64,000 nucleotides of DNA from contig OZ024766.1 in the NCBI GenBank assembly GCA_964016885.1, positions 13,702,001-13,766,000 of the forward strand, read 5' to 3'. Below are positions 38,257 through 64,000 of the stretch, piece by piece. Below the pieces are notes generated by a model. It was not told where the DNA came from. It searched no databases and saw only the letters and a program-made list of their open reading frames with translations. The position numbers and the translations under genes are program-made. Source of the stretch: Eledone cirrhosa (Eukaryota). Every line of letters begins with the position of its first letter. Position 1 is the first letter of the stretch.

Positions 38257-38450
38257 CTCAGGTTCAATCAGAGGTAACCACAGTAAGTACGGTGCTCAAT
38301 ACATAGCAGAGTATGAATATTTAATATAGAAATGGCTTCTACAGGACTAGAACTGTTTCAGTCAGGAGAAATCATCAGGAAGCTTCCTGGTGATTTCTCC
38401 CGAATCAAACAAGTCTAGTCCTGTAGAAGCCATGTCTATATTAAATATAA
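38257..38450. mobile_element. Short hairpin element (Penelope/retrozyme-like) with hammerhead, family H1
   Basis: Homologous to 60103-60295; palindrome centred on AAGCTT at 38380-38385. Confidence 0.75.
38335..38383 (-). ncRNA. Type I hammerhead ribozyme motif
   Basis: GCUUC CUGAUGA UUUCUCCUGACU GAA ACAG UUCUAGUC CUGU A^GAAGC: intact core and helices I and III; helix II weak. Confidence 0.65.
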
Positions 38451-39964: not shown

Positions 39965-40103
39965 GTTTGCAGTACAGTTACGTCCCTTTACGGACTGAGC
40001 TCAAATCCCGCCGAGGTAAACTTTGCCTTACGCGGTCGATAAAATAAAGTACCAGTAATACACTGGAATTATTGCAGGCCTTGTGCCAAAAGTAGAAACA
40101 ATT
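39965..40103 (+). mobile_element. SINE family 1, 5'-truncated
   Basis: CTCAAATCCCGCCGAGGTAAACTTTGCC...GTCGATAAAATAAAGTACCAG...GTAGAAACAATT. Confidence 0.8.
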
Positions 40104-40261: not shown

Positions 40262-40448
40262 ATAGGAAAATGTATGACCCCGACGGCAGAGCTGAAGCCG
40301 TTTCGACGGTTATTTCTGGACTAAATTTAGTCCAGAAATAGACGTTGAAACGGCTTGAGCTCTGCCGTCGGGGTCATACATCTTCCTATTACCCACTCTA
40401 CTACCCTAAGTATTGAGTACTCTGGTGCATTATGGTCCATCTGGTTCC
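40262..40448. mobile_element. Short hairpin element family H2 (64-bp-arm palindrome, hammerhead-like)
   Basis: Arms 40262-40325 and 40326-40389; GAAACGGC-loop-GCCGTC in both arms. Related copies at 46651-46759 and 48930-49073. Confidence 0.75.
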
Positions 40449-40555
40449 TTACTACAACTCCTTCGTTATATATATATATATATATATATGTGTGTATATA
40501 TAAGTGTGTGTGTGTGTGTGGGTGTCTGTGACCTCTATACACTGGTTACAGACAG

Positions 40556-40586
<31 letters not shown>

Positions 40587-40939
40587 CACACACTTAGAAA
40601 CTCTTCCTATTCAGCAAGAGACAGTAATGTTGTAATTCAATTCTTTGAAGTCTCTGGTTATAAATTCATTCAACAACACCACCAGCTCTCTCTCTTCCAT
40701 CCTCTGTCTCCTCTCCCTCTCTCTATGTCTCTCGTTCAATCTACTCTTTCACAACCACTATCTCTTTCTATCTTTCTCACTCTCTATTTATGAAGGTACG
40801 CTGAAAAACTCCGTATCTCGGGAACCTGTGCTCCAATTTATGTGAAACTTGTTTTATTACATTTGTATTCCCATTTCAGGGCCAACTTCCTTTCAAACTA
40901 TTTTCCCATTATGTGCCCTTTTGGTTGTATTACATTACA

Positions 40940-41459
40940 CTAGCAGAAAAACCACACTTCAGGTAGTTTTCTGCTAGCATGTGTAGTGTGTATATTGATA
41001 TTATATGCAGGTATATATATACATGTAGATATGATACATCAAATAAAATCATAATTGACAATATATAATACATAGAAATTGAACGAAGACTGCGTTACAC
41101 TGTCTTATGTAATAAGTAACGTAATCCATGATACATTAAAAAAGACGATATTATATATAAACTGCGTTAGGAGAAAATTAGTGACGGAAAATTAGTATGT
41201 TTATTTTAGCGATGGCCAACAGGAAGTGTTGACATTTGAAAATTTTAAAGAAGTGAATCTTTAAATAAACAAAATATATTTAATGAATAGCCACGAAATT
41301 TAGTAGATAAATTATGTAATATTCATTCATTATTTATTCAAGGTAACCCAACTTATTTTACAAACGGGATAAAACTAAAAAAATCGTACGCAATCCCGCA
41401 GGCCTTCCTTATAGTTTAGATTACAGATAAGCAAGCAATAACAGAGTTTTAGTAGTAGA
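40940..41459 (-). mobile_element. Non-autonomous Helitron
   Basis: On the minus strand: 5' A|TCTACTACTAAAA and 3' hairpin CTAGCAGAAAA...TTTTCTGCTAG|T. Confidence 0.7.
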
Positions 41460-41474
41460 TAGATAGATAGATAG

Positions 41475-41797
41475 ATATCTTTATCTGCCACAGGGGTGCA
41501 CAAAAATGGGACATTACAAGACGTGACGGCGGGGATTTTACATAAAAATCATATAACTTTAACATTAATAAATAACAATAAACTATATATAATAAAATAA
41601 CAATTGAAATCCCCAATAGGGGGGAACGTTACTACAGGGTTGTTTTACACCCCATGGATAGAACAACCCTCAACACCAGGAACACGTTTTGTAGGTGTTC
41701 CCGTCTTCCCTCTGTTTATCTTCCTCAACCTACAGGTTTATATCACTCGGGACATTTTCGCCACATTCACTCATCTTTCAGCGAATTTACTGAGGTG
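41475..41797 (-). mobile_element. Second L1/Tx1-like 3' fragment
   Basis: Matches 3612-3960 (VNVAKMSRV; CCCCTGTGGCAGATAAAGATATC tail). Confidence 0.7.
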
Positions 41798-41831
41798 AGA
41801 TAGATAGACAGATAGATATATAGATAGATGT

Positions 41832-42017
41832 ATTGTTTCTACTTTTGGCACAAGGCCAGCAATTACCCTAGTGCATTGCTGGTGCTTTATTCTATCGATT
41901 CCGTAAGGATGAAAGGCAAAATTAACCTTGGCGGGGTTTTAACTCAAACCATAAAGGGTTGTAACTCTATGCCTCACAGCATGGCGTCCGACTCTCTACA
42001 AATACTGCCAATCCACT
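41832..42017 (-). mobile_element. SINE family 1
   Basis: Reverse complement of the 16320-16510 element. Confidence 0.8.
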
Positions 42018-42360
42018 GCCCTTTTCTATCTACAGGAAGTGTTCCATCCCCAAGCCTTAATAGATTCAGGGTGAACAGCTCTGATTGTTCACCTCTACCA
42101 AGGTCTGCCCTCATCTTTGTAGAGAGTTCAAAGTGTTGAATTTTTTCAAACAGGCTCAGATTTCATCACTTATTTCCTTTTGGAATGACAGGGAGGGTTT
42201 GTCTAGAACACAGGTTCTCAACCCATTTAGGCCAAACGCCCCCTTTTGTCCCTCGAAACCACGGAACGCCCCCCCAACACCATATTGTTTCACTTTTTCA
42301 ATATACTACTGATTTTTATATCAGTAGATTACTAAAAAATTGATTAACAATATTCCAAAC

Positions 42361-43008
42361 ATGTGTGTATTATCTGATTATGTGTTGTATGTGGTCCTAG
42401 ATGTATGTATTATCTGATTATGTGTTGTATGTGGTCCTAGATGTATGTATTATCTGATTATGTGTTGTATGTGGTCCTAGATGTGTGTATTATCTGATTA
42501 TGTGTTGTATGTGGTCCTAGATGTGTGTATTATCTGATTATGTGTTGTATGTGGTCCTAGATGTGTGTATTATCTGATTATATGTTGTATGTGGTCCTAG
42601 ATGTGTATATTATCTGATTATGTGTTGTTTGTGGTCCTAGATGTGTGTATTATCTGATTATGTGTTGTATGTGGTCCTAGATGTGTGTATTATCTGATTA
42701 TGTGTTGTATGTGGTCCTAGATGTGTGTATTATCTGATTATGTGTTGTATGTGGTCCTACATGTGTGTATTATCTGATTATGTGTTGTATGTGGTCCTAG
42801 ATGTGTGTATTATCTGATTATGTGTTGTATGTAGTCCTAGATGTGTGTATTATCTGATTATGTGTTGTATGTGGTCCTAGATGTGTGTATTATCTGATTA
42901 TGTGTTGTATGTGGTCCTAGATGTGTGTATTATCTGATTATGTGTTGTATGTGGTCCTAGATGTGTGTATTATCTGATTATGTGTTGTAAGTGGTCCTAG
43001 ATGTGTGT
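42361..43008. repeat. 40-bp minisatellite, 16 copies, inside the hAT element
   Basis: ATGTGTGTATTATCTGATTATGTGTTGTATGTGGTCCTAG. Confidence 0.95.
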
Positions 43009-43190
43009 TCTACTCGCTTCTGTTTTTTTCTTTTCTTTTTTTTTATTTGTAATATTATTTATACAATAGGGAATAAAATGGATCTACATAGTGTTAACTC
43101 GTTACGGTTGAGTCAATAATTTCAGACAAGATTCTAACTGTCTGCGCTCAAAGTGTCTTTGACCCAGTTGACTGTGGGTTTTTCCATTTT

Positions 43191-43315
43191 TAGGATCTCA
43201 ATTACCGGACATGCCTGCACACCTGCTCACAGCTGCAGACAGCATACCTATAGTCTGACCGCAGGTGTGCAGGCATGTCCGGTAATTGAGACGTTAACCG
43301 GTAATTGAGATCCTA
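43191..43315. mobile_element. Nested palindromic MITE-like element
   Basis: TAGGATCTCAATTACCGGACATGCCTGCACACCTGC ... GCAGGTGTGCAGGCATGTCCGGTAATTGAG ... CCGGTAATTGAGATCCTA. Confidence 0.65.
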
Positions 43316-43335
43316 AAATTTGGAAAAAACCAACG

Positions 43336-43366
<31 letters not shown>

Positions 43367-43457
43367 TAACGCGACCTTGCTCCAAAACGCCCCCCGGGGG
43401 TGCATATGCCCCCCGTTGAGAAGCTTTGGTCTAGAATGTCCTCCACTTCCTCTTCCC

Positions 43458-43929
43458 ACTACTGCTGCTACTACCATTACTACTACCACTACCATTACTA
43501 CTACTACTACAACTACTACTACTACTACTGCTACCACTACTACTACCACTACTACTACTACCACTACTGCTGCTACTACCATTACTATTACCACTACCAT
43601 TACTACTACAACTACTACTACTGCTACCACTACTACTACCACTACTACCACTACTGCTGCTACCACCATTACTACTACTACCACCACCACTACTGCTGCT
43701 ACTACCACCATTACTACTACAAGTGCTACCACTACCACTACTACTGCTACTACCACCATCATTACTACTACTACTACAACTACTACTACTACTACTGCTA
43801 CCACTACTACCACTACTGCTGCTACCACCACCATTACTACTACTACCACTACTACTACTACTACTAACACCACTACCACCATCGCTACCACTATCACCAC
43901 TACAACTACTACTACTACCAACACAACTA

Positions 43930-43965
<36 letters not shown>

Positions 43966-45042
43966 ACACCACTACCAGCTAAACTACCCCCACCACCACT
44001 ACTACTACTAACACCACAACCACCATCGCTACCACTATCACCACTACAACTACTACTACTACCAACACAACTACTACCACTACCACCACTACTACTACTA
44101 ACACCACTACCAGCTAAACTACCCCCACCACCACTACTACTACTAACACCACAACCACCATCGCTACCACTATCACCACTACAACTACTACTACTACCAA
44201 CACAACTACTACCACTACTACCACTATCACCACCACTACCAGCTAAACTACCCCCACCACCACTACTACTACCACTTCTACCAATACTATTACTACTATA
44301 AATACTACTACCACCACTACCAACACCATGCCCACTGCCACCACCATCACCACCACCAGCTAAACTACCACACCCACCACCACTGCCACCACCACTACCA
44401 CCACCACTGCCACCACCACTACCATTATCACCACCACCACACCCACTACCATCACCACCTTCTACCATTATCACCACCACCACCTCCACTGCCACCACCA
44501 TCACCACCACCACCACTACCATCACCACCACCACCACTGCCACCACCACTACCACCACCACCACACACAACCATCACCACTGCCACCACCACTACCATTA
44601 TCACCACCACCACACCCACTACCATCACCACCTTCTACCATTATCACCACCACCACCTCCACTGCCACCACCATCACCACCACCACCACTACCATCACCA
44701 CCACCACCACTGCCACCACCACTATCACCACCACCTTCTACAATTATCACCACACCACCACTGCCACCACCACTACCATTATCACCACCACCACACCCAC
44801 AACCATCACCACTATCACCACCACCATCACCACCTTTTACCATTATCACCACCACCACACCCACAACCACCACCTCCACTGCCACCAACACTACTATTAT
44901 CACCACCATCACCACCACCACCACCTCCACCACCACTATCACCACCACCACACCCACCACTATCACCACCACCTTCTACCATTACCACCACCACCACCAC
45001 CACTGCCACCACCACTACCATTATCACCACCACCACCTCCAC
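43458..45042. repeat. 1.6-kb degenerate (ACT)n/(ACC)n trinucleotide tract
   Basis: Directly visible; produces poly-T/V/G/S pseudo-ORFs. Confidence 0.95.
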
Positions 45043-46129
45043 CAGAATTCTGTGTTTGGGTGTGTACTTCCCCACCATCTGTTTATGGAGGGAGAATATA
45101 CTGACCAATCAAAATCTTGTAAATTCCATATTATGTGAGATAATTATGTGAGAAAAAGCCTTCACCATGAAAATATAATAGTAATGTAAATGCTAAAGGG
45201 TTAATGCTATCGTTAATATTAATTATCATTAGAAAATAAAATTACAGATCAAAATTTATAAATTTAAAACTTCAAAAATCTAAAAATTTAAACATTTCAA
45301 ATTTCAAAAATTAAAAGTCAGAAAACCATAGCTTTAAATTGTATTCTCCCTTTGCGGTTATTGGTCGGTATATTATCCCGCCATAAATGGGAGGTGGACA
45401 CACACACACCCAAACACAGAATTCTGCCGAACACCGAAGCTAGCAGTAAACAACAAATCTGTGGCTGATTTGAACTCTCTGTGACCGTATCATATTGCCA
45501 GCTAAGATGGTGGGGGACTGGTGGCTGAGAGGTTGTCCTACTGGACTCAGGGGCCCTATCCACCCCAGCATTTTACATCATGGACTGGGTGGTTTTATTG
45601 TACCACCAGCACTAGAGAGGTTGTCTTACTGGACTCAGGGGCCCTATCCACCCCACCATTTTACATCATGGACTGGGTGGTTTTATTGTGCCACCAGCAC
45701 TTGAGAGGTTGTCTTACTGGACTCAGAGCTCTTCTTCAATCCATAGTTTAGCATGCTTTTTAATAACTGAATGCTACTACAACACACCGAAACACAGAAT
45801 TCTGCCGAACACCGAAGCTAGCAGTAAACAACAAATCTGTGGCTGAATTGAACTCTCTGTGACCGTATCATATTGGCAGCTAAGATGGTGTGGGGCTGGT
45901 GGCTGGGGTGAATCACCTATGGTAGTAGTAATCTGGGTGGTGGTTAAGTGGTCAACTTCCCGCACCTCTGTGTCTATGCTGAGCTGCGGGAAGTCCTGAA
46001 CTTCACAAGGGAGCTGACAACCCCAGCAAAAACAATAATTTTTTTTTAGTCCACTCCCTAGCACCCAGGACTGCCTCTGAAACGTAACATTTTACTCAAT
46101 TTTGCTTCGTTTGGAACTGGTAAAATCTT

Positions 46130-46186
<57 letters not shown>

Positions 46187-46194
46187 TACATAGT

Positions 46195-46584
46195 AAAACC
46201 TACTCCAGCCAGTAGGCATCTCTAACAAAATACACCCCGTCCCACCACCCCCACCCCCACCCCATCCACACCACCCCGTTTTATGTAAAGTTATGTTGGT
46301 GCCGCGCCATCCAGGCCGAAATAAATGAGATCGTGTAGGTGTCACGACAAAAAAAACACACAGTCCACGCTGTAATGTGGCCGTGTAGGCAACACGGTAA
46401 AAACCTCCCAGACCCACACTGTAAATGTGGTTGGTTTTAGGAAGGGCATCGAACTGTAGAAAACCTGCCAGACAGTCCTATGCGAGCAAGACAATCACTC
46501 TTGCCTCAAGTGGGACTACCCCCGTCCAAACCCATGCAAGCGTGGAACACGGACGTTAAACGTTGATGATGATGATGATGATGA
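46195..46584 (+). mobile_element. Solo RTE family A 3' UTR
   Basis: Near-identical to 48510-48882. Confidence 0.88.
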
Positions 46585-46650
<66 letters not shown>

Positions 46651-46652
<2 letters not shown>

Positions 46653-46758
46653 GGAACCAGTAAGACCCCGACAGCTGAGCTCAAGCCGTTTCGACGGCTA
46701 ATTCTGGAGTACTTTGGTGCGTTATGGTCCACCTGGTTCCTTACCACATTTCCTTCGT

Positions 46759-46759
<1 letters not shown>
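46651..46759. mobile_element. Family H2 hairpin element with central deletion
   Basis: 46651-46708 matches 49009-49066; 46709-46759 is the reverse complement of ~48929-48980. Confidence 0.7.
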
Positions 46760-46814
<55 letters not shown>

Positions 46815-46815
<1 letters not shown>

Positions 46816-47293
46816 TAGATGAATTACCCGAGCCTTGCTGCATTTCACACATTTTTTTTGTAAGAAAATGATGATTGATTGATTAGTGATATAATTTATG
46901 GGGAAAAACTCTGCATTTCAATATTACTCAATGTAAAATGTAATGCATGAAAAATTGGAAAACATTATTTTTTGTAATATAACAAATCAAAATTACATTA
47001 TTAAATCTTATTCTTATTTTGTTTCTTGTAAATAGTTTTTTTCAAAATATCAATTCAAAGCTTTTGTGAATAGGCATCATATGTTGTCATTTAACTTTGG
47101 TTTAAATTTCATATAATTCGAACAGAAACATTTTTCAGCAGGGGTTTTGTGCCTCTGGGGAACCCTTTGATTAAAATGAAATATACTTATCCAAGTACCC
47201 TGGTGAATGTAGTTTCAGAATATATAAGGTTATGGGGGTCTATCTCTAAGACCATAGGAGGAGTTCATGAACAAACAAACAAACAGGAATACA

Positions 47294-47300
<7 letters not shown>
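46815..47300 (-). mobile_element. Non-autonomous Helitron/Helentron-like element
   Basis: A|CTAG..TACCCGAGCCTTGC terminus and ACAAACAAAC...CTTTATATATA opposite end. Confidence 0.5.
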
Positions 47301-47374
<74 letters not shown>

Positions 47375-47391
47375 CAATATATATATATATT

Positions 47392-47425
<34 letters not shown>

Positions 47426-47635
47426 TATATATATATATGAATATATATATATATTTATATATATATAAATATATACTATGAAATATGAGTTGAAAACTCA
47501 GGCAGTCCTTTATCAAATATATTAATTTATATTAACTTGTATAAATATATATATATATTTTATATATATAAATATATTTATATATATATGTATATATATA
47601 TATATTTATATATATAAATATATATATATATAAAT

Positions 47636-48882
47636 AGAGTCAAAAGGACTTAAAATTAACCTGGCTAAGACCAAAGTTCTAGTTTGTAGGAAAGAAAACA
47701 AGGCGGCGGTCCCTTCTGGGAAATGGTCGTGCTCGGTATGTAGGAAAGGCGTAGGTAGAAACTCCATCTTATGTCCTAAATGCAAAGTATGGGTGCATAA
47801 AAGATGTAGTGGGATCACAGGTAAGCTAACTAAGAACATAGACTTTACATGTGGCCGGTGTTCTGGTGCAATAAGTAGCAGCAAGTGCCCACAAAATACT
47901 AGCTCTTTCAATTGCGCAGAGGGTTTTATAGAAATAGTGGACAGCTTCCGTTACCTGGGCGATAAAATCAGCAGTGGGGGAGGGTGCTCTGAAAGTACTG
48001 TAGCTAGAGTCAGAACTGGTTGGAAAAAGTTCAGAGAGCTTATACCACTATTAGCTGCTAAAGGGTTCTCCCTAAAAATGAAAGGCAGGTTGTACGATGC
48101 CTGCATACGAACAGCAATGTTGCATGGTAGTGAGACCTGGGCATTGTGTGCAGAGGATATACGCAGACTAGAGAGGAACGAAGCTTGCATGCTCCGCTGG
48201 ATGTGTAACAGTAATATACGTGAACGGCAAAGCATAAACGAACTAAGGAAAATATTAGAGATAAGAGGGATCAGATGTTGTTTACTCGAGAGAAGGCTGC
48301 GTTGGTATGGACACGTGATGCGCATGAAAGTCGATAGCTGTATTACAAAGTGCAGGGCAATAAAGATAGACGGTAGCCACGGAATAGGCAGACCTAGAAA
48401 AACATGGGACGAGCTGATAAACTCCGACCTCACACACTTACACCTCTCCAAGACAATGTCACTGGACCGTGACCTTTGGCGGTACTCAGTAACAGAGAAG
48501 ACCCGCCTTGCCAGTAGGCATCTCTAACAAAATACACCCCTCCCGCCGCCACCCCCACCCCATCCACACCACCCCGTTCTATGTAAAGTTATGTTGGTGC
48601 CGCGCCATCCAGGCCGAAACAAATGAGATCGTGTAGGTGTCACGACAAAAAAACACACAGTCCACGCTGTAATGTGGCCGTGTAGGCAACACGGTAAAAA
48701 CCTCCCAGACCCACACTGTAAATGTGGTTGGTGTTAGGAAGGGCATCCAACTGTAGAAAACCTGCCAGACAGTCCTATGCGAGCAAGACAAATCACTCTT
48801 GCCTCAAGTGGGACTACCCCCGTCCAAACCCATGCAAGCGTGGAACACGGACGTTAAACGTTGATGATGATGATGATGATGA
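47636..48882 (+). mobile_element. 5'-truncated RTE family A copy (PHD-like finger + C-terminus + 3' UTR)
   Basis: Open frame to 48527, near-identical to 1498-2220 and retaining the segment deleted there; flanked by (TA)n. Confidence 0.93.
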
Positions 48883-48894
48883 TAAATATATATA

Positions 48895-48929
<35 letters not shown>

Positions 48930-48931
<2 letters not shown>

Positions 48932-49073
48932 CGAAGGAAATGTGGTAAGGAACCAGGTGGACCATAACGCACCAAAGTACTCAATACTTGGGGTAGTAGA
49001 GTGGGTAATAGGAACCAGTAAGACCCCGACAGCTGAGCTCAAGCCGTTTCGACGGCTAATTCTGGACTAAATG
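48930..49073 (-). mobile_element. Family H2 element (single arm)
   Basis: Homologous to 40326-40448. Confidence 0.72.
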
Positions 49074-50977
49074 AAAATTTATCCTGGTATTTAAATAGCC
49101 GATCTTCTCAAGGGGTAATTCCATATATGGTCAAAGTGATTGTCAAAAATCAGTAGTAATTCTGTGATTGCAAATTAGTAGGGGAGATGGTGGCTAAACC
49201 TGCCAGTAGGATAAAGAGGGGAGGGGGTGGAGTAGACCCAATCAAGCGTTGGTAGTGCCAGCTACAGCTGGGCATGAGGTCAAAGAAGATACTGGGGAGG
49301 GGGGAGTCGGAACGGTAGGTAGAACAATGGGGGGTAAAAATATATATGAAAGAAAAAATACTGAGAGTGAAGAAAAGCGGATAAGTGTAAAGAAAAAAGT
49401 AAAGCAAGTTCTACGACCTAGGTCTCTAGCTATTGTTAGGCTAGAATAAATAAATAAATAAAGAAAGAAAGAAAGAAAGAAAGAAGTAAAGAAAGAAATA
49501 AAGAAATAACGAAATAAGTAAATGAACTATGTGGGACGGAATAGGCAAGAACCCTTTTAAGAGGTATAAGTACGTAAATGATACGGTGACGGGTCAACAA
49601 ATGGGGCCAAAATACTAAAGAGACTACCACGAAATAAATAATAAAGGTTTCCATCCCGGGCACAATTCCAGCAACCACCCAGTGCAGCAAAGTGAACTAG
49701 TACGAGATAATAATTCTGAGTCCCGAAAAAAATATATACTAATGCTAACTCTAAAAGATCTAAAACAAGCTACATGAAAGTTCGTACGAAGTAAAGGTAG
49801 AATACGGAAAAATAAATTCAGAATCCACCCCGCCCAAAAGAAAAGCGAAGAAAGAAATACTGAAACGAGAAAATAAGGCATAAGTGCCACTAAGAAATAT
49901 AGAAGGCACGGAGAATAGTGGGAGAGGTCGGAAAAAGGGGGCAAGTATCCGGGGTCTAAACCAACTGCTATAAAAGGCGGAGTCCGCCAAATCTATCATA
50001 GACTAGGGAAGAGGGTGGGGGTACTAAGGCTACAAGGGGCCAAAGGGCAGCCTCGGGTGGGCGAGAAAAGACGCCGACAAAGGAGAAGAGCTGGGGTAGA
50101 AGGACTAAGGAGGGAAGGGGGGAAGGAAATAAAGGAAGCGATAAAAGAATAAAAAGAAGATCTTACGTCTCCCTTGGCAAGCAGGGGTTACCCATTGCAA
50201 AATCGGCAAGTGGGGTGTTATAGGAGGGGCAGCCAGTTGGCCATGCAAAACCCACATGTTACCACAGTTTTGGGGCCCATCTCTCTCCAGGCAGATTTCT
50301 TCCAGAGAAAGAGAGAAAGTGAGAGAAAGGAAATGAGATGTAGAGGAAGAATCAACTCCAGTATTTGACTGGTACTTTTTTGTCGACCTTGAAAGGATGA
50401 AAGACAAAATTGACCCCAGCAGGATTTGAAACCAGAGACCAGAATGAATACCATAAAGCATACACATATATAAAAATGTATATATACATATATAACCAAC
50501 ATTAAATTAAGGGTGCCATAACATCTCTAAAATATGCTCAAAGATTCTAACGGATAGATCCAAGCATTTATAAGCATTCAATTAAAAATCGATTGACATA
50601 TATATATATAAAATAAACATATCAAACAATGACAGGGGATAATTTGTAAAGAGTGTAAGCACACATAGGTAGGTAGGGAACTAATTAAAATTTAACGAGA
50701 ACATCAAATATAGAAACCTTTCAATAATGATTAATCTCCTATATACATATATATCTACAATTATATAAAATAATATTTTCCTTGCTACCGAGAAATCAAT
50801 ATGACAAATTTTGAAGTGAATAAAATTGACATCTTACCTGAAGGACAACAATTTCTTCTATGACAGATTTCTTTAGACTTTTAATAATCAGGTGCCTGTA
50901 ATTTAATGAAATGATCTTTATATGACCCTTACATATATATTTCAGAACAGGATGTAAATAATATTTTGTATACATAC

Positions 50978-60103: not shown

Positions 60104-60185
60104 GTTATTCCGGGTTGAATCGGAGGTAACCACAGTAAGTAAAGTACTCAATACATAGCAGAGTATAAAAGTTTTAATATAGATG

Positions 60186-60235
60186 AGATTCTACAGGACT
60201 AGAACTGTTTCATTCATTAGAAATCATCAGGAATC
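60186..60235 (-). ncRNA. Type I hammerhead ribozyme motif (mirror copy)
   Basis: Exact reverse complement of the plus-strand motif at 60237-60286. Confidence 0.7.
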
Positions 60236-60286
60236 AGATTCCTGATGATTTCTAATGAATGAAACAGTTCTAGTCCTGTAGAATCT
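60236..60286 (+). ncRNA. Type I hammerhead ribozyme motif
   Basis: AGAUUC CUGAUGA UUUC-UAAU-GAAU GAA ACAG-UUCUAGUC-CUGU A^GAAUCU; predicted cleavage after 60280. Confidence 0.72.
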
Positions 60287-61954: not shown

Positions 61955-62152
61955 ATCATCATCATCATCATCATCAGGTTTAGCGTCCGTGTTCCACGCT
62001 TGCATGGGTTTGGACGGGGGTTTTCCCACTTGAGGCAAGAGTGGTTGTCTTGCTCGCATAGGACTGTCTGGCGGGTTTTCTACAGTTGGATGCCCTTCCT
62101 AACACCAACCACATTTACAGTGTGGGGCTGGGAGGTTTTTACCGTGTTGCCT
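61955..62152 (-). mobile_element. RTE family A 3' tail
   Basis: Reverse complement of ~2535-2725. Confidence 0.88.
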
Positions 62153-63944: not shown

Positions 63945-64000
63945 TTTTGTCTGATGAAAGCACACCATAATTTAACGTGGTGTCCTTGAAATATGTATAA
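63945..64000 (+). ncRNA. Hammerhead-like motif, runs to the window edge
   Basis: CUGAUGA, helix II AAGCACACCA/UGGUGUCCUU (9 of 10 pairs), then GAAAUAUGUA; helix I uncertain. Confidence 0.5.

Follow-up and report, generated by a model that had tools for sequence, protein, structure and literature searches.

The 64,000-nucleotide (nt) stretch of Eledone cirrhosa DNA analyzed here, called the window below (assembly GCA_964016885.1, contig OZ024766.1, positions 13,702,001 to 13,766,000 of the forward strand), contains copies of a repeat, H2, that carries a motif shaped like a type I hammerhead ribozyme with AGAAWUA in the place of the canonical CUGANGA core. The original prediction, made from the letters of the window, saw in it either an undescribed hammerhead variant or a ribozyme-dead lineage that still amplifies. 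We find that the motif is part of the 5′ leader, or pseudo-long terminal repeat (pLTR), of an autonomous Hydra-type Penelope-like element (PLE), that the motif region is under purifying selection, and that ends of H2 copies across the genome accumulate at the predicted site of cleavage. The H2 features of the window are listed below, with motif positions indexed from the first core base as 0 (window 40334 in locus 1), which places the predicted cut between C35 and G36.

40326..40466 (+), locus 1 forward arm, a short copy from the inferred transcription start (~40329) to the distal 3′ end (tail)
40334..40340 (+), variant core AGAAAUA replacing CUGANGA in locus 1, index 0-6
40340..40355 (+), 1-bp helix II and competing hairpin AGCCGU-CGAA-ACGGCU, disrupted in locus 1 by two private changes
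40347..40369 (+), GAAA, helix III with its palindromic loop, and GUC; predicted cut between 40369 and 40370
40370..40387 (+), helix I 3′ strand and small downstream hairpin (index 36-52), ending at the proximal 3′ end of copies (index 53)
40410..40421 (+), GTATTGAGTACT motif, common to family H1 and, as GTATTGAGCACT, to a 37%-identical relative from another organism
40264..40325 (-), locus 1 inverted arm with the fourth motif copy, core 40317-40311
46652..46708 (-), locus 2 inverted arm with the motif, core AGAAUUA at 46705-46699
46708..46759 (+), locus 2 forward remnant, tail alone
48930..50223 (-), locus 3, a 5′-truncated copy with the whole 3′ untranslated region (UTR), pLTR and tail and no open reading frame (ORF); 96% identical to the intact copy L108
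49057..49063 (-), variant core AGAAUUA of locus 3; predicted cut between 49028 and 49027, inferred start 49068
49088..49097 (-), what we take to be a TATA-like box, 29 nt upstream of the inferred start of locus 3

All three loci of the original prediction hold the motif with the core that was read there, AGAAAUA at locus 1 and AGAAUUA at loci 2 and 3, but a fourth copy lies in the inverted arm of locus 1, and two of the loci extend further than proposed, locus 1 to ~40466 and locus 3 to 50223 with its entire 3′ UTR. The H2 copies in the window are 5′-truncated. In each motif copy the core is followed by a 6-nt linker, GAAA, helix III (ACGGC/GCYGU) and GUC then GGGG, with the predicted cut between the last two. 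The linker had been described as R-NCGU-Y; its locus 1 form, GACGUY, occurs in 185 copies as against 35,521 with an open linker (a slightly longer pattern) and is thus a private change of that locus, the family form being GCCGUC. The downstream motif, noted there as shared with H1, is reduced at locus 2 to GAGTACT. The statement that N7 alone varies holds inside the 7-nt core in a column tally of 100 copies, but the subfamilies also differ at position −2, at the loop-closing base 29 and at position 32, where C32U retains the helix III pairing as G-U.

In this 3.0-Gb genome an exact search with the 27-nt helix III pattern gives 25,960 + 25,921 matches (51,881) and one with its reversed control gives none, so the motif is not a product of chance; a 30-nt pattern from the H2 tail has 38,147 matches. 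A genome-wide consensus, which had been proposed as a check, agrees with the window, with AGAAWTA as the core in 25,476 of the 27,509 copies matched by fixed flanks (92.6%). Upstream of the H2 helix III, CUGANGA has 13 matches, 12 of which retain the H2-type linker region and one of which is a short junction; H2 thus has no canonical-core lineage with this helix III. A search for the AGAAWUA core with a different helix III yielded none among the first 100 of its 471 matches (197 in the control). H2 has the GAAA, A15.1-U16.1 pair, NUH triplet and helix III of type I hammerheads, and its core is not CUGANGA, so it is not classed as a canonical hammerhead. Loop III (window 40350-40368) is 9 nt long and includes the 6-nt palindrome GAGCUC (2+6+1), and cofolding predicts a long intermolecular duplex; retroviral dimerization loops have the same layout.

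The H2 element and its relatives

Longer H2 copies comprise the motif, a 230-nt leader, an ORF, a 3′ UTR and a second motif, set in (TA)n. Stop-free ORFs lie on the same strand and downstream of the motif in L094, L107 and L108; the intact ORF has 719 codons, pLTR-ORF-pLTR tandems are present, and the unit in L108 is 3,542 nt long. The H2 protein has the reverse transcriptase (RT) motifs FDIESYY and YRDD and, by motif, a C-terminal GIY-YIG-like segment (VIY..YIG). The Hydra clade is defined by RW, DKT, CxCx5C, CxxC and CxH motifs in the accessible text of Craig et al. (2021, PMC8557442), and their counterparts in the H2 ORF are RLRWR (R for K), SDKTG, CNCPDRSIC, CNLCSEE and NKKDELVTACKH (N-x-E-CxH). 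Like the PLEs described there, H2 inserts in (TA)n and has pLTR tandems, inverted 5′ copies, a tail, a hammerhead-shaped pLTR motif and a single ORF that joins RT to what its motifs indicate is a C-terminal GIY-YIG-type endonuclease; the octopus element Hydra-1_Obim is listed in the same clade. H2 differs in that its unit of ~3.5 kb exceeds the "generally <3 kb" of that account, and in that AGAAWUA and a 1-bp helix II stand where all 25 families of its File S2 have CUGANGA and a helix II of at least 3 bp. Canonical hammerheads are stated there to be universal in the clade, but they are not among its unique protein features.

A Pfam search of the H2 ORF gave no match, and our trees hold the families of this genome plus L121, a relative on a metagenome contig, so the Hydra assignment rests on motifs. 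As we take the Nematis and Naiad clades to be organized, motifs and domain order do not fit either, and both readings were dropped. A non-LTR (long terminal repeat) retrozyme, that is, a set of non-coding tandem repeats, was rejected since H2 has an autonomous ORF and its copies are dispersed and mostly head-to-head. In the pLTR of this intact PLE the motif takes the hammerhead position, which supports the proposed homology with hammerheads. Between two H2 subfamilies, 62 of 200 fourfold sites are different as against 3 of 50 motif positions, counted from TTTAG to GGGGTC (P 1.8e-5). With this constraint on the motif region and with intact ORFs, H2 is not a dead, non-autonomous lineage. In L094 (3179-3379) no stop interrupts the 67 codons of the frame that precede the first ATG, an open stretch that starts inside the helix III loop.

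Several relatives have hammerheads at the same pLTR position, namely H1 (CUGAUGA), F5 (CUGAGGA), F4 (CUGACGA), H3 (CAGAAGA, that is, U4A) and the 37%-identical L121, whose hammerhead is canonical and which shares the downstream motif as GTATTGAGCACT. The H1 and H3 proteins are 49% and 54% identical to that of H2, and the three families form a clade (support 97/96); of the three resolutions of its inner fork H2+H3 has the best score, and none is rejected (approximately unbiased test p 0.71, 0.41 and 0.19; fragments F7 and F8 left out). Full H1 ORFs are found in L352 and L362, and the H1 copies in the window (60145-60264; 38356-38378) have CUGAUGA, U-U at 10.1-11.1, a TATA box and an initiator-like start. 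H3 has 18,959 copies and intact ORFs, and among the first 100 copies 93 have CAGAAGA and none has U4. H3 is a cleaner candidate than H2 for a new active core variant. Its motif (L153:1287-1335 (+), also L104, L155 and L197) is a Hydra-type hammerhead that is orthodox apart from U4A. A loose search for U4A stayed at chance level (130 matches against 177 in the control). A shifted register, in which C3 A4 G5 A6 are kept as in H3 with a 1-nt insertion and G8U, would explain the origin of the H2 core about as well as the register of the original prediction; the latter is favored because in all three families (H1, H2 and H3) helix I begins with the inferred +1 base.

The genome is rich in PLE-type hammerheads (a protein search gave 93,202 first-look candidates), and families with canonical hammerheads in (TA)n are abundant (window 63951-63999; L021, L064, L069, L099, L101, L102, L117). 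Every Hydra-like family seen (L121, L129, L141, L153) has a GAGYACT-type motif in its leader, often twice and once right before the start codon; the motif is a candidate protein-binding signal. Locus 1 and its flanks recur as six near-identical copies (L001-L006) at 13.0-15.1 Mb of the same contig, a segmental duplication. SINE-like (short interspersed nuclear element-like) dispersed repeats adjoin the H2 loci (window 46387-46561, 48500-48860 and 39970-40100; partners 2537-2707 and 61978-62152).

Ends of H2 copies

H2 copies have two 3′ end points, at index 53 (proximal) and ~133, and two 5′ end points, near −5 and at 36. Among copies selected by their tails, 34 of 70 (H2) and 25 of 50 (H1) start at index −15 to +5, centered on the A of TTAGTC in H2 or of CCAGAT in H1; short H3 copies start, by eye, at the A of TTAGTT. 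We infer from their sequence that these start points are initiators, and we take the sequences found 29-30 nt upstream of the start in H1 and H2 to be TATA-like boxes. An added C on the cDNA is the mark expected of an RT that copies a cap. Of the arms ending at the inferred +1, 8 of 10 have such an extra C (H2 5/5, H1 3/5); of those ending at G36, 7 of 59 do (Fisher p 3e-5). This test is small and biased, since an A added at +1 scores as templated, and to this extent it tells against the use we make of it below. A 3′ splice site at TTTAG/TCC, as in Drosophila virilis, is disfavored; the copy ends and the added C indicate a start at the A. The preponderance of starts near +1 indicates that most templates are copied straight across the cut site.

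The second 5′ end point falls on exactly the GUC bond that was named as the cut from sequence alone. Head-to-head pairs ending near it have 506 matches genome-wide, and in a hand tally of the first 99 loci both arms end at G36 in 45 (15 blunt, 30 with filler), within 1-2 nt of it in 22 and elsewhere in 32. When the first 60 of the 506 pairs were parsed by script, 20 blunt or overlapping ones were set aside as ambiguous and 40 with filler were kept; 24 of these are 36/36, and 59 of the 80 arms end at 36, with 3 at 35, 6 at 37 and 7 at 38. The 24 G36/G36 loci are independent, no two being near-identical. The first base added at G36 arms is A in 32, T in 20 and C in 7 (single-base fillers counted for both arms), and T replaces C35 in 3 of 100 copies, so CpG decay cannot explain the A/T fillers. 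Of the 70 tail-selected copies only 6 start near the cut site; by hand tally, 13 of 56 (TA)n-flanked loci start at 36, 6 further ones being ambiguous. The G36/G36 rate is about 200 per 38,147 H2 tails (~0.5%), or up to ~1% with the (TA)n-flanked class included. The ends suggest that ~0.5% of insertions were copied from an RNA whose uncapped end lay at the hammerhead scissile bond. The RNA of H2 probably still undergoes cutting at this bond, and the cut may be its own.

Self-cleavage and the rival readings

We consider the chance close to even that H2, a hammerhead homologue with a rewritten core, cleaves itself slowly at GUC/G, probably only when the element's own protein refolds it. Under this reading the pLTR would drive RNA from the initiator-like TTA+1GT ~5 nt before the core (index −5), and we infer that this RNA is capped. 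The element's protein would bind the leader and nick (TA)n, and RT would prime from both nicked DNA strands, at index 53 and ~133, and copy to the 5′ end of the RNA, giving head-to-head pairs. The hairpin AGCCGU-CGAA-ACGGCU would hold GAAA and so keep the ribozyme off, leaving most templates uncut; in ~0.5-1% of templates the RNA would adopt the helix III fold and be cut after C17, and both arms would then stop at G36 with an untemplated A. Most insertions would not need cleavage. A bolder form of this reading, to which we give somewhat less than even weight, makes H2 an active, rule-breaking hammerhead (A3 G4 A5 A6 N7 U8 A9, 1-bp helix II) with a protein switch between hairpin and helix III, which out-cuts its canonical sister in vivo; head-to-head junctions would then be a fossil record of cleavage, readable in any PLE-rich assembly.

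Several points weigh against self-cleavage. Helix II consists of a single G-C pair that encloses four bases, and helix I has 3 bp plus a terminal pair and contains a G.G mismatch, further weakened by C-2A in 6 of 94 copies. The helix II strand AGCCGUC repeats the helix III 3′ strand, so that ACGGCU can pair either way, and the upstream hairpin AGCCGU-CGAA-ACGGCU buries GAAA with a computed probability of 0.60-0.98; the fold given in the original prediction had overlooked both this hairpin and the single pair of helix II. Forming the hammerhead junction costs 15.5-17.0 kcal/mol in H2 as against 3.5-6.5 in H1, H3, F5 and L121 (100-nt folding windows), a gap that narrows when folding begins at the inferred start (14.4 against 7.8 for H1 and 10.0 for H3); overall, folding disfavors the H2 junction by 13-17 kcal/mol. 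Of the core changes, U4G and G5A ordinarily abolish hammerhead activity. In the accessible portions of two experimental papers, G5A serves as an inactive hammerhead control (PMC4027429), and pairwise mutagenesis of this region was rescued solely by a C-G to G-C swap (PMC9901934). The motif therefore looks dead if judged by core and modeled folding alone. As for constraint, the core by itself is not significantly conserved (0 of 6 changes, P 0.11), and conservation extends beyond the motif through the whole leader, so that a promoter or protein-binding role could explain it. The proposed A3-U8 pair lacks covariation support: among 8 double mutants 1 is Watson-Crick and none is C-G or U-A, with 254 single changes at position 8, in a test whose power is low because copies mutate neutrally.

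The copy ends have their own difficulties. The canonical H1, taken as a positive control, failed, with both arms at the site in 2 (at most 4) of 39 loci by hand tally, or ~0.02-0.03% of 12,082 tails, which is ~20-fold below the ~0.5% of H2; further searches of H1 ends, in which TA flanks blur the site, gave no clear peak there. In 4 of the 5 copies that were folded, G36 opens a small hairpin that extends as far as the proximal priming point, so that a halted exonuclease or the edge of a bound protein might leave the same end. Where the partner arm reaches +1, the other arm starts at 36 in 7 of the first 100 of 273 pairs (hand tally); with so few mixed pairs, the end of one arm goes with that of the other, as though both derived from a single RNA whose physical, uncapped end was G36.

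Other sources of activity were considered. G4 might stand in for U4 in a GNRA-like turn, which is speculative. Rfam had no match for H2, and the same search of the window also missed the canonical H1 copies, so this blank is uninformative. A hairpin ribozyme (loop A AGAA opposite N/GUC) was rejected: no helix 2 was found by inspection against the consensus as we take it to be, and Rfam gave no match at E≤10. We likewise rejected the idea that a canonical core from another part of the unit acts in cis, as none of three UUGANAA matches is complementary by eye to helices I and II.

The foremost rival, only slightly less likely than self-cleavage, is a dead hammerhead relic kept as promoter or leader and protein-binding RNA, with the G36 ends produced by a 5′-3′ exonuclease halting at the G36-C52 hairpin or at a bound protein, by a host endonuclease, or by a sharp RT stop. 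The core changes, the folding cost, the missing 3-8 covariation and the nearly negative H1 control all fit it, as does the hairpin at G36, which is strongest in the young subfamily; the weak-hairpin subfamily has 3 of 24 such pairs against a background of 13 of 44 (p 0.14, not significant). It is also in keeping with accounts, in the accessible text of each, that D. virilis Penelope transcription needs the first ~46 transcribed nt, the region filled here by the motif (PMC2377424), and that hammerhead mutants of the PLE Poseidon still insert in vitro (PMC11167929); Naiads, moreover, thrive without a hammerhead. Yet the ends fall on the single bond predicted beforehand from hammerhead geometry; arrest at helix III would presumably leave ends at 35, and arrest at helix I or the long hairpin would leave them at 38 or beyond. 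Both arms end on the same base with an untemplated A, as at a physical template end, and GAAA, GUC and the 7-nt core spacing are all retained.

A dead hammerhead whose internal promoter has a second, minor start of transcription at G36 is very improbable. C/G is a pyrimidine-purine step, of the kind we take start sites to prefer, and 7 of 59 arms carry an extra C, but this cap-type C is far rarer than at +1 (8 of 10) and may in part be G-run slippage, the peak is one base wide, and there is no initiator- or TATA-like sequence at the right distance. An origin of the symmetric G36 junctions at the DNA level, by deletion of the centers of longer head-to-head palindromes or by joining bias, is equally remote: palindromes are unstable in general and blunt junctions can be read as 2-bp CG microhomology (6 of 60 loci), but in the 24 filled junctions microhomology is absent, both arms share a single end base and A/T has been added, GC content is just as high upstream, and H1 palindromes have no such peak.

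Known systems and the meaning of H2

PLE hammerheads and octopus Hydra elements are already known. The minimal hammerheads of metazoan PLEs (Cervera and De la Peña 2014, PMC4209133) resemble the H2 motif in being of type I, in the pLTR, with a short helix I and a palindromic loop III, and they include a natural 3-8 swap (U3-A8) with low activity in vitro; unlike H2, the core variant in the accessible text keeps U4, G5 and a long helix II, and no A3-U8, G4 or A5 appears there. Among the natural core variants of Perreault et al. (2011, PMC3088659), cores deviate and 1-bp stems II and U-U at 10.1-11.1 occur, but those in the accessible text are single changes or insertions (U3-A8, A6C, U4C and others), with a pseudoknot backing the 1-bp stem, as against four core changes in H2; by eye we saw no pseudoknot partner for the H2 stem. 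As far as these partial sources go, the known natural variants are milder in sequence than the H2 core.

Poseidon PAc (Frangieh et al. 2024, PMC11167929) is like H2 in having two internal RT start points that define its tail and differs in its canonical core. In the accessible part of that paper its hammerhead cuts only with its protein, cleavage is dispensable for insertion, and no RNA-seq reads end at the cut, whereas genomic H2 copies do end there. Its protein-assisted cutting is the model for our reading of H2, but the precedent cuts both ways and in part adds to the points against cleavage in H2. A 2026 retrozyme preprint (10.64898/2026.07.22.740005) used, in its accessible portion, canonical plus minimal descriptors. 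In the literature searched, with most subscription papers outside its scope and Lunse et al. 2017 (PLE variants) represented by the accessible text of review PMC6765202, we found neither an A3/G4/A5/U8 core nor a U4A PLE hammerhead nor cut-site junction signatures described.

Untemplated bases at head-to-head junctions offer a cheap read-out that appears to distinguish capped from uncapped template ends, and one clade offers a graded series from the canonical H1 through the U4A of H3 to the rewired H2. If H2 is dead, a very abundant PLE family thrives without cleavage; it would be a counter-example to the statement that hammerheads are universal in Hydra and would bear on the role of the PLE hammerhead. 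If H2 cuts itself, a natural A5/G4 core would contradict long-standing hammerhead mutagenesis and widen the rules for this ribozyme, and searches based on CUGANGA would be missing whole ribozyme families, perhaps in the PLE clades that have been reported without a hammerhead.

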